Below, one piece after another: positions 3,588 through 63,491 of a stretch of 64,000 nt of DNA. Position 1 is the stretch's first letter. Each line of letters starts with the position of its first letter. The translations under genes and the position numbers were made by a program. The notes under the pieces were generated by a model. It had not been told where the DNA came from. It saw only the letters and a list, made by a program, of their open reading frames with translations, and ran no database searches. Source of the DNA: Escherichia coli (GTDB lineage Bacteria; Pseudomonadota; Gammaproteobacteria; Enterobacterales; Enterobacteriaceae); assembly GCF_002854065.1 (NCBI RefSeq), contig NZ_CP024147.1, one strand, 5' to 3'.

Positions 3588-5129
<1,542 letters not shown>

Positions 5130-5253
5130 AAAAGTTTGATGCTCAAAGAATTAAACTTCGTAATGAATTACGTGTTCACTCTTGAGACTTGGTATTCATT
5201 TTTCGTCTTGCGACGTTAAGAATCCGTATCTTCGAGTGCCCACACAGATTGTC

Positions 5254-5273
5254 TGATAAATTGTTAAAGAGCA
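5254..5273 (-). promoter_or_regulatory. rrn leader boxA antitermination element
   Basis: Reverse complement tgctctttaacaatttatca in the leader between P2 and the 16S 5-prime end. Confidence 0.7.
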
Positions 5274-5310
5274 GTGCCGCTTCGCTTTTTCTCAGCGGCG
5301 CGGGGTATGC

Positions 5311-5338
5311 ATAATACGCTTTCCCGCCACAGAGTCAA
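5311..5338 (-). promoter_or_regulatory. rrn P2 promoter
   Basis: Reverse complement gives -35 TTGACT and -10 TATTAT with 16-bp spacer. Confidence 0.7.
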
Positions 5339-5429
5339 GCATTTATTTTTGCTTTCTCTACCGGAATTCTCAGGAGAACCCCGCTGACCCGGCGGCGTGT
5401 TTGCCGTTGTTCCGTGTCAGTGGTGGCGC

Positions 5430-5480
5430 ATTATAGGGAGTTATTCCGGCCTGACAAGCGAAAAATATAAAAACTTTATC
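5430..5480 (-). promoter_or_regulatory. rrn P1 promoter with GC-rich discriminator and AT-rich UP element
   Basis: Reverse complement TTGTCAggccggaataactcccTATAATgcgccaccactg; A/T-rich block immediately upstream. Confidence 0.8.
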
Positions 5481-5541
5481 GTTCGCTCACTTTTCAGGCA
5501 AAACATCTTAAATATAGTCTTTTCCGTCTAACTTATAGACA

Positions 5542-5567
5542 AAAACGAGCCCCGAAGGGCTCGTTTT
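5542..5567 (-). terminator. clpB intrinsic terminator
   Basis: Hairpin aacgagccc-gaa-gggctcgtt followed by T-run on the minus-strand transcript, directly after clpB stop. Confidence 0.6.
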
Positions 5568-5572
5568 ATCAT

Positions 5573-8146
5573 TTACTGGACGGCGACAATCCGGTCTTCA
5601 TTAACTTCCAGGCGAATCACTTTACCCGGAACCAATTCACCAGACAGTATTTGCTGTGCCAACGGGTTTTCGATCTGCTGCTGGATAGCACGTTTCAAAG
5701 GACGTGCACCATAGACTGGATCGTAACCGTTCTCGCTCAGCAGTTTCAGCGCCTCGTCAGAAATGTGGATTTCATAACCACGTTCTTCCAGACGTTTGTA
5801 CAGACGTTTCAACTGAATCTGCGCAATCGAGGCAATGTGCTGTTCGCCCAGCGGATGGAAGACCACCACTTCATCGATACGGTTAATGAACTCCGGACGG
5901 AAGTTATGGCTTACCACACCGAGCACCAGTTCTTTCATATGCGCATAATCCAGTTCACCGAAGCGTTCCTGAATCAAATCGGAACCGAGGTTAGAGGTCA
6001 TAATGACAACCGTATTACGGAAGTCGACCGTTCTCCCCTGCCCGTCAGTCAGACGCCCATCATCCAGTACCTGCAACAGAATGTTGAAGACATCCGGATG
6101 CGCTTTTTCCACTTCATCCAGCAGGATAACGGAATACGGACGACGACGCACAGCTTCGGTCAGGTAGCCACCTTCTTCATAACCAACATATCCCGGAGGC
6201 GCACCAACCAGACGAGACACCGAGTGTTTCTCCATAAACTCGGACATATCGATACGGACCATCGCCTCGTCGCTATCAAACATAAAGTTCGCCAGCGCCT
6301 TACAAAGCTCAGTTTTCCCCACACCAGTTGGGCCGAGGAACAGGAATGAACCAATCGGGCGATTTGGATCCGCCAGCCCCGCACGGCTACGACGAATAGC
6401 GTTAGATACCGCATCAACCGCTTCGTTCTGACCAATAACGCGATGGTGCAGTTCTTGCTCCATACGCAGCAGTTTTTCGCGCTCGCTTTCCATCATGCGA
6501 GAAACCGGAATCCCCGTCCAACGCGCCAGCACTTCAGCAATTTCGGCGTCGGTCACTTTATTACGCAACAGACGCATAGTTTTGCCTTCGAGCTGCGTTG
6601 CGGCTTCCAGTTGCTTTTCCAGCTCCGGGATTTTGCCGTATTGCAGTTCAGACATCCGCGCCAGGTCACCCACACGGCGAGCCTGTTCAATAGCGATTTT
6701 CGCCTGTTCCAGTTCCGCTTTAATGGTCTGCGTACCAGAAAGCGATGCTTTCTCTGCTTTCCACTCTTCTTCTAACTCGGAGTACTGACGTTCTTTGTCG
6801 CTCAGTTCTTCGTTGAGCATATCCAGACGTTTTTTACTGGCTTCATCAGACTCTTTCATTAACGCCTGTTGTTCCAGTTTGAGCTGGATGATACGGCGAT
6901 CGAGTCGGTCGAGTTCTTCTGGTTTTGAGTCAATCTGCATACGAATGCTGGATGCTGCTTCATCGATCAGGTCGATGGCTTTATCCGGCAGCTGACGGTC
7001 AGCAATGTAGCGATGAGACAACGTCGCCGCTGCAACAATTGCCGGGTCAGTAATTTGCACATGGTGGTGCAATTCGTAACGTTCTTTCAGGCCACGTAGA
7101 ATCGCAATGGTATCTTCAACAGAAGGCTCGGCAACAAACACTTTCTGGAAACGACGTTCCAGCGCAGCATCTTTTTCGATGTACTGGCGATATTCGTCAA
7201 GCGTCGTGGCACCTACGCAGTGCAATTCACCACGCGCCAGCGCCGGTTTCAGCATGTTTCCGGCGTCCATTGCGCCATCGGCTTTACCCGCGCCGACCAT
7301 GGTATGTAATTCGTCGATAAACAGGATGACGTTGCCTTCCTGTTTGGCAAGATCGTTAAGCACGCCTTTTAAACGTTCTTCAAACTCACCGCGATATTTC
7401 GCCCCAGCCACCAGCGCGCCCATATCCAGCGCCAGTACGCGGCGGCCTTTCAACCCTTCCGGCACTTCGCCGTTGATAATACGCTGCGCCAGACCTTCAA
7501 CGATGGCAGTTTTACCGACGCCGGGTTCACCAATCAGTACCGGATTATTTTTAGTACGACGTTGCAGCACCTGAATGGTACGGCGAATTTCTTCATCACG
7601 ACCAATCACCGGATCGAGTTTGCCCTGTTCGGCTCGTTCGGTAAGGTCGATGGTATATTTTTTCAAAGCCTGACGTTGGTCTTCAGCACCTTGATCGTTC
7701 ACGCTTTCACCTCCACGCATTTGTTCAATCGCTTGAGTAATGTTGGCGGTGGTCGCCCCTGCTGCTTTCAGGATGTCGGCCAGCGTGCCGCGAGACTCAA
7801 GTGCCGCCAGAACGAACAGTTCTGACGAGATAAAGTTATCACCACGTTTTTGCGCCAGCTTGTCGCAAAGATTAAGAACGCGCACCAGATCCTGTGATGG
7901 CTGGACATCACCACCAGTACCTTCAACCTGCGGTAAACGATTTAATGCCTGATTGATATCTGTGCGCAACTGGCCAGCATTTATGCCAGCTGATGTTAAC
8001 AAAGGACTAACCGAACCCCCTTCCTGATTCAGCAGGGCGCTCATTAAATGAAGTGGTTCGATGAATTGGTTGTCGTGCCCGAGTGCAAGTGATTGGGCAT
8101 CGGCAAGAGCAAGCTGGAATTTATTAGTAAGACGATCCAGACGCAT
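5573..8146 (-). CDS. clpB: ClpB disaggregase (AAA+ chaperone, Hsp100)
   Basis: ORF track 861 aa; N-terminus from [18 protein letters not shown] onward, two Walker A motifs ([16 protein letters not shown]); start moved to the fifth in-frame Met (857 aa). Confidence 0.95.
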
Positions 8147-8184
8147 AACTCCTCCCATAACGGATCAAAGTTGCTACTGGAGAT

Positions 8185-8214
8185 TAAATGAGGTCATCCC
8201 TCAATTATTCAAGG
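8185..8214 (-). promoter_or_regulatory. sigma32 heat-shock promoter of clpB
   Basis: Reverse complement contains CCTTGAA ... CCTCATTTA, resembling the sigma32 consensus CTTGAAA / CCCCATnT. Confidence 0.55.
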
Positions 8215-8275
8215 TTATTGACCAGATTAATGTGAAAAGAAAATCACACGTACCGGATCGTCTTGATTCTTTAGG

Positions 8276-9007
8276 TTATATCAGCCAAATGAAACTTGCC
8301 ATACGCCCGGTGGTCTTGTCGCGACGATAAGAGAAGAAAGTCTCATTTTCCGTATATGTACAACGGTCGCCGCCGAAAATTTGTTCAACACCAACGCTCC
8401 CCAGACGCTGCCGGGCAAGCAGATAAATATCCGCCAGATACTTATCACCATGCTGAATGAAAGCTGTACTCGCTTTGGCGTCTGCTGCCATAAACGCCTC
8501 GCGAACCTCCGCCCCCACTTCGAACGCGCGTGGACCAATTGCCGGCCCTAACCAGGCGAGAATATTTTCCGGATTATCAGCAAAACAGGAAACTGTCTCT
8601 TCCAGCACGCCTGCGCGCAGTCCACGCCAGCCAGCATGAGCGGCGGCGACTTCCGTTCCCGCTCGATTGCAAAACAGCACAGGGAGGCAGTCGGCAGTCA
8701 TCACTGCGCAAACCGTGCCAGGCGTATTGCTATAAGAGGCATCTGCTCGTTTTGAGGCATAAGGTTCGCCAGTAAGCTTAAGCACATCTTTGCCGTGTAC
8801 CTGCTCAAGCCAGACCGGTTTAGAAGGCAAATTGCCCGCAGCAAAAAGTCGCTTGCGATTCTCCTCAACGTGATCCGGGTTATCGCCACAATGGGCACCG
8901 AGGTTGAGCGAGTCATACGGGGGCAAGCTCACGCCGCCGATACGAGTAGAGCTACAAGCCGCAACACCTTTTGGCAGCGGCCACTGCGGGACAATCAGCT
9001 TACTCAT
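8276..9007 (-). CDS. yfiH: YfiH/PgeF family purine nucleoside phosphorylase / peptidoglycan editing factor
   Basis: 243-aa ORF with K-12-like sequence; 4-nt overlap with rluD. Confidence 0.9.
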   Translation of the reverse strand: MSKLIVPQWPLPKGVAACSSTRIGGVSLPPYDSLNLGAHCGDNPDHVEENRKRLFAAGNLPSKPVWLEQVHGKDVLKLTGEPYASKRADASYSNTPGTVCAVMTADCLPVLFCNRAGTEVAAAHAGWRGLRAGVLEETVSCFADNPENILAWLGPAIGPRAFEVGAEVREAFMAADAKASTAFIQHGDKYLADIYLLARQRLGSVGVEQIFGGDRCTYTENETFFSYRRDKTTGRMASFIWLI

Positions 9008-61369: not shown

Positions 61370-61377
61370 GGTTGTCA

Positions 61378-61404
61378 AAGGGAGCTTCGGCTCCCTTTTT
61401 ATTT
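61378..61404 (+). terminator. emrB intrinsic terminator
   Basis: gggagc-ttcg-gctccc followed by tttttattt. Confidence 0.75.
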
Positions 61405-61626
61405 GCTCATTGTGCAAACGGTTGTTTTATCCACTCATTCGGTGTATCTTTTCGCCGCCCCAAACTCTTCCATTCACTATTAACCGGTTCTGAGCATTCG
61501 CTCAGGTTGTTAATTCTCTTTTTCCTTCGCCCTCGCTTTCGCGGGTGATACTCACATTTTCCGTTTAACCCCATAACTCGCACCCTCGCGGGCGTACGTT
61601 TATTACACACAAAATAATGGATTATT

Positions 61627-62334
61627 ATGAATACCCAACTTAAATACGGGAGAACCTGGCATTATCCTTTCTCCCCCGGCACCACCAGCGATGACCGCAT
61701 TAACGCCGATTACTGGCAGGATTTACAGGCCATCGCGCAACTGGTGCATACAGAAAAACTCGACGGCGAAAATAACTGCCTTAACCGCTACGGTGTGTTT
61801 GCCCGTTCCCATGCCGCGCCTACGCAGTCGGCATGGACCTATAAAATTCGCCAGCGTTGGCAACTGCTGAAAAACGATCTCGGCGACCTGGAGTTGTTTG
61901 GCGAAAATCTCTACGCCGTTCATTCCATTGAATACCGCGCGCTGGAACAGGACTTTTACCTGTTTGCCGTTCGCTGCCAGGATATGTGGCTGAGCTGGGA
62001 AGAGGTGCAGTTTTACGCCGCCCTGTTTGATTTCCCCTGCGTTCCCGAAATCTCCGGCCCGCAGCCGGGGAATGATGAAAAAAGCTGGCAACGTGATTTT
62101 CTGGCACTGACCAATGCGCGCGGCGCGTTCGATCCCTGGGATACACAAACCGGGCAACCCTGTACTCTGGAAGGCATTGTCAGCCGGAATCGTGATGCGT
62201 TTTCCGTCGCTGACTTTTCGCATAACGTCTTCAAGTATGTGCGCAAAAATCATGTCAAAACCACTGTGCACTGGAAACGACACTGGCAACGGGCGCGGAT
62301 GGCCCATGAGTTCGCTTATGGAGAACAGTCATGA
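61627..62334 (+). CDS. Putative ATP-dependent polynucleotide ligase (minimal covalent nucleotidyltransferase)
   Basis: 235-aa ORF with candidate nucleotidyltransferase motifs: [35 protein letters not shown]; ATG start; 4-nt ATGA overlap with the next gene. Confidence 0.7.
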
Positions 62335-63443
62335 TTTGGCAGCTTACCGACGATAAACGCTGGTCGACACTACGCCAGCGTTTCAGTTGGGTTGAGGAGA
62401 TGCATCACACGCCACAAGACCCGGAGCATCATGGTGAAGGTGACGTCGGCGTGCATACCGAAATGGTGCTTAACGCCCTTGTTACTCAGCCAGAATTCCA
62501 GCAACTCCCCGCTCAACAGCAGGAAGTTTTATGGGCGGCGGCGTTATTACATGATGTTGAAAAGCGCAGCACTACCGTGCAGGAAAACGGACGTATTCAG
62601 TCGCCGGGCCATGCTCGTCGGGGCGAACTGACGGCCCGGCTGATTTTGTGGCGCGATATCCCAACGCCGTTCGTGCTGCGCGAGCAAATCGTTGCGCTGG
62701 TGCGTCTGCATGGGTTACCGCTATGGTTACTGGAACGTCCGGAACCGGAGCGTTTGTTGCTCACGGCTGCAATGCGCATCGACACGCGTCTGCTCACTTT
62801 GCTTGCTCGTGCCGATCTGCTTGGTCGCCAAAGCCCGGATCAGCAATCAATGCTGGAACGCATCGATCTGTTCGAGCTGTTTTGCCAGGAGCAACAGTGT
62901 TGGGGAAAAGTGCGCTCGTTCGTGTCTGATTCCGCACGCTGGCATTACCTGACCCATGAGCAAAGTTCTCCTGATTTTGTTCCCTGGGAGGCTGAACCTT
63001 TTGAGGGCATTTTGCTGTGTGGCTTACCGGGTATGGGCAAAGATCGCTATATCAATGAACAGTGCCAGGGAATGGACGTTATCAGCCTTGATGATATGCG
63101 GCGGCGAATCAATGCCAATCCGGACGACAAAACCGCCACCGGGCGTATTGTGCAACAGGCAAAAGAAGAGGCACGCGTTTTTTTACGCCAGAAAAAGCCG
63201 TTCATCTGGAATGCAACGAACTTTACCCGCCAGCTTCGTAGCCAGCTCATCAGCCTGTTTACGGCTTACGGCGCACGAGTAAAAATAGTTTATCTTGAAG
63301 TGCCATGGGCGCAATGGAAGCAGCAAAATGCCAGACGCGAGTATGCAGTTCCTGAAGCGGTCGTGATGCGGATGGCCTCAAGGCTGGAAGTTCCTCAACC
63401 TGATGAAGCACATAGCGTGGAGTATCGGGTGATTGAAAGGTAA
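62331..63443 (+). CDS. Putative HD-domain phosphoesterase fused to a 5-prime-OH polynucleotide-kinase-like P-loop domain
   Basis: 370-aa ORF: N-terminal HD signature ([10 protein letters not shown] ... LLHDVEK ... D), C-terminal P-loop GLPGMGKD followed by ISLDDMRRR and TRQLR, resembling polynucleotide kinase catalytic motifs. Confidence 0.7.
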
Positions 63444-63448
63444 AAAAA

Positions 63449-63473
63449 CCGGGCGGTGGTGTCACCTGCCCGG
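63449..63473. terminator. Bidirectional terminator between the HD-kinase gene and luxS
   Basis: ccgggcggtg-gtgt-cacctgcccgg with A7 upstream and T-rich downstream. Confidence 0.65.
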
Positions 63474-63491
63474 CTTCTTTTGTTCCACTGA

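Follow-up and report, generated by a model that had tools for sequence, protein, structure and literature searches.

A conserved leader with a candidate promoter and three predicted hairpins precedes a LIG/HD-Pnk RNA-repair cassette in Escherichia coli

According to the available part of the describing report, the LIG/HD-Pnk cluster of Runella slithyformis comprises a ligase-like open reading frame (ORF) whose 3' end overlaps the ORF of an HD-phosphoesterase/5'-OH kinase, and the ligase adenylates itself and sealed no substrate tested (PMC6097658). The cluster goes back to Munir and Shuman (2017), as described in PMC6097658. A non-coding spacer of 152 nt precedes the Runella ligase gene, and in that part of the report neither a promoter nor a leader RNA nor any regulation of the cluster is described (PMC6097658). 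Here we analyse the region in front of a related cassette in a 64,000-nt stretch of an Escherichia coli genome (contig NZ_CP024147.1, assembly GCF_002854065.1), referred to as the window at its full length. The region in question, the leader, lies at 61403-61626 between emrB and a gene of the RNA ligase family. The E. coli cassette has the ligase and HD-Pnk genes of the Runella cluster in the same order and with overlapping ORFs, whereas the Tpt1 and MTase-HIT genes of Runella are absent from it (PMC6097658).

Further points of comparison are provided by described leaders and by another RNA-repair operon. Like attenuators of the pyrBI and trp type, the leader places a GC-containing hairpin with a U-rich tail some 35-65 nt after the predicted transcription start and before the first gene, but it possesses neither a leader peptide nor an anti-terminator helix for this predicted terminator. 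The Salmonella rsr-rtcBA RNA-repair operon carries the Y RNAs YrlA and YrlB, and the two loci have in common that a conserved RNA, structured by prediction in the present case, is encoded beside RNA-repair enzymes. In contrast to that operon, the RNA considered here would lie upstream of the genes and be read together with them, it matches no Y RNA, tRNA-like or other Rfam family, and the locus lacks a Ro/TROVE protein as well as RtcR or a sigma-54 promoter. In position and size, a 5' untranslated region of ~170 nt with several hairpins, the leader is typical of Rfam cis-regulatory families, yet no model matches it or the related loci beyond chance: the 4227 models of Rfam 15, searched to an E-value of 10, gave only three chance hits in the window (E-values between 0.8 and 8, with scores falling far short of the gathering scores) and no match in 18 related stretches. 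A published description of the leader was not found in the literature searched.

The reading that we favour, with slightly better than even confidence, is that the leader combines a promoter of the cassette's own with a structured, probably attenuating 5' leader of three hairpins, designated H1 to H3 (Table 1). Transcription would start near 61457 from a weak sigma-70-type promoter and thus independently of emrB. The first ~30 nt of the resulting ~170-nt leader would remain single-stranded and expose the block CUUCCAUUCAC, after which H1 and its U-rich tail would act as a leaky intrinsic terminator, such that only read-through transcripts would reach the genes. Further downstream, H2 and H3 would lock GC-rich segments locally, and the last ~35 nt, A/U-rich and open, would allow translation of the ligase to start despite a Shine-Dalgarno sequence consisting of GGA only. 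The conservation, the hexamers and the three predicted hairpins are shown below, while the start of transcription, termination at H1 and the influence on translation are inferred; of the steps themselves, only the weakness of the Shine-Dalgarno sequence was computed directly. In kind, a promoter followed by a structured 5' leader is ordinary, and the present one would be a new example with a narrow distribution.

By comparison among genera, the region 61403-61626 is conserved non-coding control DNA that travels with the LIG/HD-Pnk cassette. A ligase scan over one genome per species returned 303 places. Over its full length (~250 nt) the leader is 76% identical in Klebsiella spallanzanii and 72-74% identical in Phytobacter and Kosakonia; it also aligns from end to end with that of a UBA3516 metagenome-assembled genome (MAG) and blockwise with Superficieibacter and Enterobacter sp. 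BIGb0383, while Salmonella enterica and further leader variants were added through protein look-ups. All seven named genera with a leader of this type have the cassette immediately behind emrB and in the same orientation. In the ligase and HD-Pnk genes, E. coli and these genera agree at just 36-60% of the four-fold degenerate sites, which are hence saturated, so that the 72-76% identity of the non-coding leader indicates purifying selection. An earlier note on this DNA had stated that the region contains no ORF, which holds insofar as other genera preserve none in its frame or length; mechanically, however, an ORF of 58 aa from TTG on the plus strand and one of 67 aa from GTG on the minus strand exist. 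Because of frame-breaking indels and the lack of an ORF common to the genera, the leader is not a small-protein gene. The covariance model R1 matches the emrB-linked clade only, and a metagenome scan with the start-region pattern recovered only Phytobacter- and Kosakonia-like variants in addition to unrelated chance hits.

The same earlier note had placed the cassette promoter in this interval, and the alignment supports this: two hexamers 17 bp apart carry a -35 TTG and a -10 TAT..T, of which the TTG and the T, A, T and last T are invariant in 14 leaders from six genera and one Enterobacteriaceae MAG. Salmonella features the same hexamers at the same spacing. In Superficieibacter the site reads TTGCAA-17-TATTAT, agrees with the consensus at 9/12 positions and is flagged by the consensus scan; the -35 element reads TTGCAA in Enterobacter BIGb0383 as well, and the scan flags a promoter there, too. 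A sigma-70-like cassette promoter thus probably sits in the leader, and from the position of the -10 hexamer transcription is predicted to start at about 61456-61458. Usable start-site or small-RNA data for the locus in carrier strains were not found in the literature searched. Sigma-32, sigma-E and sigma-54 promoters were considered as well, and a check by eye gave no convincing match to any of them.

At the predicted transcript start, the GC-rich CCGCCCC is followed by the CUUCCAUUCAC block (61467-77), which is unpaired in most folds and varies in Superficieibacter, Enterobacter BIGb0383 and the leader L110. Next comes H1, whose seven pairs are retained in 18 distinct leaders with eight different loops and whose pairing probability is ~1.0. 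In E. coli it extends to 61479-61514 via AUUAAC/GUUAAU and is followed by UCUCUUUUU; the 5' domain with the extended hairpin folds at z = -2.9. H1 and its tail display the features by which intrinsic terminators are recognized, namely a GC-containing stem of at least 5 bp, a loop of 3-8 nt and a U-rich tract directly after it, and H1 is flagged as terminator-like in the E. coli window, in Superficieibacter (L012) and in Salmonella (L109). Changes on both sides of the stem occur at three positions in Superficieibacter (U.G to G.U, U-A to C-G and A-U to G-C). Judging from these folds and alignments, H1 is probably a terminator of the attenuator-like kind. A leader peptide controlling H1 was not found, as no ORF in the leader is conserved.

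A comparable hairpin was observed in the leaders of Xenorhabdus, which contain a terminator-like AAAAGCG-loop-CGCUUUU followed by AUU; it is situated ~70-40 nt ahead of the first ATG, the one further upstream in ATGGATATG. Its stem covaries between species, reading GCG/CGC, GUG/CAC or GACGC/GCGUU. A promoter-proximal terminator-like hairpin therefore recurs in an unrelated leader type.

The remaining two hairpins vary in a manner that keeps them paired. The CCC/GGG core of H2 is invariant in 13 leader types, while the flanking pair is G.U, A-U, G-C or U-A; in strain CFT073, a change of C61534 to T yields a U.G pair. Most leaders have U.G at position 2 of H3; the pair there is U-A in Escherichia MOD1 and A-U in S. 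electus. For Salmonella, each of the three hairpins is predicted at a probability of 0.9-1.0, with a longer local hairpin at the H3 site (probability 0.97). When the leader is tested for covariation as a structured RNA, the clade offers little divergence, and H2 shows four pair types and H3 three, at one position each.

The A/U-rich start region contains AATAATGGATTATYATG, which is nearly invariant across genera. Both the emrB terminator hairpin at 61377-61398 and the ligase ATG at 61627 are where the earlier note had placed them, and the ligase start can lie no further upstream because an in-frame TAA occupies 61615-17. The view that there is no recognisable Shine-Dalgarno sequence proved nearly right, except for a GGA (61619-21) at a distance of 5 nt from the ATG. 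With the tail of 16S rRNA it is predicted to pair at -3.1 kcal/mol, as opposed to -6.4 to -7.1 kcal/mol for emrA, emrB and HD-Pnk. In strain CT01 the start region reads AATAAAGGATTATT and includes AAAGG, so that the Shine-Dalgarno sequence is stronger and the ATG found further upstream in the window is gone. The latter, an out-of-frame ATG located 10 nt ahead of that of the ligase, begins a short overlapping ORF at 61617-61643 that encodes MDYYEYPT* here and MDYHE(Y/F)... in other genera, with many Asp, Tyr and His codons; the equivalent ATGGAT of Xenorhabdus and Enterobacter BIGb0383 lies in the frame of the ligase start or constitutes it. The upstream ATG lacks a Shine-Dalgarno sequence, is lost in CT01 and is probably the relic of a shifted start codon. 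A CsrA site at AUGGA was considered and discarded, the leader having just one GGA.

Table 1. Positions of the leader elements and of neighbouring features in the window.
Feature	Position	Strand	Description
Intrinsic terminator of emrB	61377..61403	+	AAAGGGAGC-TTCG-GCTCCCTTT and T-run; hairpin 61377-61398; 9 bp, strong
Strain-variable segment	61403..63460	.	2058 bp; leader, both cassette genes and 5' arm of the luxS-side hairpin
Candidate -35 hexamer	61422..61427	+	TTGTTT
Candidate -10 hexamer	61445..61450	+	TATCTT
5' strand of possible helix P1	61456..61460	+	CGCCC; pairs with GGGCG 61590-94; excludes H3; RNAalifold
Conserved block	61467..61477	+	CTTCCATTCAC; predicted single-stranded; invariant in 17 leaders of one alignment (A3)
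Hairpin H1	61489..61506	+	UCUGAGC-AUUC-GCUCAGG; 7 pairs (4 G-C), 4-nt loop
U-rich tract after H1	61507..61525	+	TTGTTAATTCTCTTTTTCC; at least 5 T in 8 in 9/11 leader types; sequence itself differs
Hairpin H2 (motif copy 1)	61527..61548	+	outer stem UCGCCC/GGGUGA, inner stem CG/CG, loop CUUU; centroid fold
Hairpin H3	61577..61592	+	CUCGC-ACCCUC-GCGGG; stem 61577-81 with 61588-92; pair table across leaders
A/U-rich start region	61595..61629	+	AATAATGGATTATTATG; upstream ATG 61617-19, GGA 61619-21, ligase ATG 61627-29
RNA ligase family gene (LIG)	61627..62334	+	235 aa; Pfam PF09414, E = 3.7e-28; RefSeq 'RNA ligase family protein'
HD-Pnk gene	62331..63443	+	370 aa; AAA_33 domain
Two-way terminator hairpin	63449..63481	.	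CCGGGC, 13-nt loop, GCCCGG; T-runs on both strands

Several results weigh against the attenuating leader with its own promoter. H1 is nearly invariant, and its both-sided changes all come from one clade, Superficieibacter; a model-based count finds one covarying pair in H1, a number equalled by 29/500 shuffles. H1 is followed by a tail that is no clean run of U, no fold offers an anti-terminator pairing with the arms of H1, and the stability of the leader as a whole is not exceptional (z = -1.5). As regards the promoter, the E. coli sequence TTGTTT-17-TATCTT agrees with the sigma-70 consensus hexamers TTGACA and TATAAT, which are set 16-18 bp apart, at only 7/12 positions, which is below the threshold and explains why the scan of the window did not flag it. 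In the full-leader ensemble fold, GGA 61619-21 is unpaired at a probability of only 0.10, for which reason an open start region is proposed only tentatively. Moreover, minimum-energy folds often pair UCCAUU (61469-74) with AAUGGA (61616-21), which would close the start region.

The 5' part of the leader could alternatively be an independent small-RNA gene of ~55-65 nt that extends from ~61457 to the U-tract at 61515-23, with CUUCCAUUCAC as its seed and the operon being served only by read-through or processing, an explanation that we consider possible though distinctly less probable. The arrangement, in which an unpaired block conserved at the 5' end precedes a variable-loop hairpin and a U-rich tail, is typical of small RNAs, the 5' domain with its extended hairpin reaches z = -2.9 when folded alone, and the rsr-rtcBA operon of Salmonella carries non-coding RNAs next to its RNA-repair genes. 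On the other hand, most genera have a short, interrupted U-tail; the tails UUGUUAAUU, UUGUUUAUC and CGUUUUUCC lack the run of at least six uninterrupted U after the hairpin that characterizes Hfq-type small RNAs. With respect to targets in trans, the complement of CUUCCAUUCAC occurs at chance level in the window and is not enriched, no complementary target stands out there, and no Rfam family is matched. A stand-alone RNA leaves the unbroken conservation through H2, H3 and the start region unexplained.

A conformational switch, riboswitch-like or damage-sensing, in which a ligand, a protein or RNA damage selects among helix P1, which would close the leader, H3 and the UCCAUU/AAUGGA pairing, appears improbable to us, and the P1/H3 switch is retained as a minority reading of the predicted folds. 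P1, which RNAalifold proposes, is 100% paired in 17 leaders, and in Escherichia MOD1 a double change replaces one of its C-G pairs by U-A; the MOD1 leader differs from the nearest E. coli haplotype at ~4-5/257 nt, two of them the partners of this one pair. In addition, U.G intermediates occur at P1 positions in the leaders L004 and L115, and from genus to genus the minimum-energy fold switches between P1 and the pairing that hides the Shine-Dalgarno sequence. The same G-to-A change of MOD1, however, also improves H3 (U.G to U-A), AST85 has an uncompensated change at P1, and Salmonella, Superficieibacter and Enterobacter BIGb0383 lack the 3' partner of P1 while retaining the 5' CCGCCCC. The UCCAUU/AAUGGA pairing, for its part, was rejected, as it remains at chance level (duplex z = +0.8) and is disrupted in three lineages (P. 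massiliensis, CT01 and L110); nor does any Rfam aptamer match.

The hairpin of the emrB terminator adjoins the leader upstream; it is present in cassette-free E. coli, too, and carries compensating changes in its stem between genera (AGC/GCT, ATC/GAT and GCC/GGC). Transcription solely by read-through of this terminator, with the conserved elements insulating or processing the read-through RNA, would agree with the weak, unflagged hexamers of E. coli and with the position of the cassette directly behind emrB throughout the seven genera, but we regard it as quite unlikely. The terminator is strong; furthermore, the key bases of the candidate hexamers and the spacing of 17 bp do not vary, and the Superficieibacter site agrees with the consensus at 9/12 positions. 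Strain CT01 (L108, locus 4628-8831) bears directly on transcription by emrB read-through only: here ~4 kb separate emrB from the cassette, comprising a DKNYY-domain gene, ISKpn26, a frameshifted IS1 and a hypothetical gene, with genes and insertion sequences annotated on the opposite strand, and the leader is nevertheless retained in front of the cassette. Read-through from emrB therefore cannot be the sole source of transcripts in CT01.

What had originally drawn attention to the leader was a repeated CCCTCGC...GCGGG motif, taken to be a possible operator or part of an RNA leader structure. Its letters and coordinates were given correctly: CCCTCGCTTTCGCGGG lies at 61530-61545 and CCCTCGCGGGCG at 61583-61594, sharing the words CCCTCGC (61530-36 and 61583-89) and TCGCGGG (61539-45 and 61586-92), which are arranged as CCCTCGC-TT-TCGCGGG in the first copy and overlapped as CCCTCGCGGG in the second. 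As a repeat, it carries no meaning that we could detect. An exact repeat of at least 7 nt arises in 90% of 2000 dinucleotide shuffles of the 222 nt and a comparable split motif in 11%, a gapped self-alignment of the leader scores under the shuffle mean, and the full motif pattern has one occurrence in the window. Conservation in homologous loci, on which the repeat was to be judged, is strong for the region but not for the motif, the shared words of which are lost in other genera; in Kosakonia, Phytobacter and Salmonella, the hairpins are retained and little beyond GGG is common to the motif copies. The two copies are moreover not equivalent in position, since the first forms the stem and inner stem of H2, whereas the second provides the loop (ACCCUC) and the 3' arm (GCGGG) of H3. 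By fold prediction they do belong to an RNA leader structure, and their resemblance is, as the sequences have it, a by-product of two GC-rich stems of the CCC/GGG type. That the copies are DNA operator sites for a regulator is hardly credible: both are GC-rich quasi-palindromes, 53 bp apart and located between promoter and start codon, but the repeat is at chance level, substitutions preserve base pairs and not sequence, the words vanish in three genera that keep the pairing potential, and the cassette encodes no regulator. The first reading is thereby corrected in that the repeat is incidental and the functional units would be the promoter and the three hairpins.

The locus comprises ygaZ-ygaH-emrR-emrA-emrB, the two genes of the cassette and luxS on the opposite strand, which is the gene order at the end of the window. 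Judged by domains and ORF overlap, the gene pair is a LIG/HD-Pnk RNA-repair cassette of the known kind: HD-Pnk is similar to the HD domain of the CCA-adding enzyme at its N-terminus (residues 13-88) and to the polynucleotide kinase Pnkp at its C-terminus (residues 227-352), and its ATG overlaps the ligase stop codon (ATGA, 62331-34). Sequence matches of the ligase in the PDB were confined to mollusc hemocyanin segments (E = 2e-9, with no single stretch passing alone), a similarity that we treat as noise and that is probably compositional.

The cassette belongs to a strain-variable segment, the junction of which carries a 1-nt T ambiguity. E. coli of the O157:H7 type is without this segment and has an emrB-luxS gap of 64 bp, whereas the leader is present, single-copy and unannotated, in 998/5426 complete E. 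coli genomes, with CFT073, E2348/69, an O25b:H4 strain, JJ1886, ATCC 25922 and strains of the O145 lineage among the carriers. About one in five sequenced E. coli thus carry the cassette, and a conserved control region provides a handle on what it repairs. No plasmid or phage copy of the leader was found, and a mobile origin is not favoured. The right junction of the segment (63460) falls inside the loop of the CCGGGC...GCCCGG two-way terminator, of which cassette-free E. coli retain just the orphan 3' arm (GTCACCTGCCCGG; L002, 3034-3060). This orphan arm, together with the emrB-linked position in the seven named genera and a ligase identity of ~81-86%, suggests at the sequence level that the empty emrB-luxS site arose via deletion of an old resident cassette, as opposed to insertion of the cassette elsewhere. 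In RefSeq, the ligase gene of CFT073 (L001, 4258-4955) is recorded as frameshifted and the HD-Pnk gene of O145 strain RM12367-C1 (L003, 4962-6074) as carrying an internal stop. The cassette is therefore decaying in some carrier lineages in which the leader is still intact.

Beyond the emrB-linked clade, the same gene pair is preceded by different leaders. ATGTAA, mostly as ATGTAAT, stands before the ligase gene in 42/76 loci from two phyla, where ~3 would be expected, and its distance from the ligase ATG is steady at 88-115 nt (L020-L079; for instance L066, 3878-3884; L033, 3909-3915; L022, 3875-3881). Carriers include Xenorhabdus, Providencia, Proteus, Chitinophaga, Mucilaginibacter, Prevotella, Dysgonomonas and Raineya. 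ATGTAA(T) pairs with the region of the ligase start codon in Proteus and the Bacteroidetes types, where it closes a multi-hairpin leader with fold z-scores of -2.6 to -5.1 and duplex z-scores down to -4.8. In Xenorhabdus such a pairing with the start region is not supported, and a closing helix AACUCUU/AAGAGUU was discarded there on account of several uncompensated changes. The element could be a start-stop mini-ORF (AUG-UAA), a -10 box in proteobacteria or an anti-start strand. Leaders of the ATGTAA(T) type match no Rfam family, and the E. coli-type leader does not contain the element; the former may represent an undescribed regulatory leader of LIG/HD-Pnk cassettes. A single leader common to all 80 ligase loci was rejected, since complementarity of the 5' part to the start region is significant only in the Bacteroidetes types, Proteus and a few others.

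That LIG/HD-Pnk cassettes generally carry a dedicated upstream regulatory RNA, of which the leader analysed here is the enterobacterial version, strikes us as a doubtful generalization. A hint in this direction is given by Bacteroidetes and Morganellaceae, whose different leaders before this gene pair have AUGUAAU almost universally, ~90-115 nt upstream. If it were true, the 5' block and the hairpins might sense translational or RNA damage or, alternatively, the leader might yield a short RNA that works with the ligase; were the leader a sensor, it would establish a new class of regulatory RNA.

Two observations concern the surroundings of the ligase in other genera. In Serratia (L015-L017 and L021), the ligase gene follows directly, with no long leader between, on a gene whose product ends in ...VFKGESFTPLA and which by eye resembles the gene for release factor H (PrfH) of the RtcB-PrfH module; if so, LIG/HD-Pnk would be linked to another RNA-repair system. 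In Superficieibacter, the emrB-ligase spacer contains two inverted terminator hairpins of the emrB type (AATGGGATC...GATCCCATT), located at positions 3644-3665 and 3776-3797 of L012.

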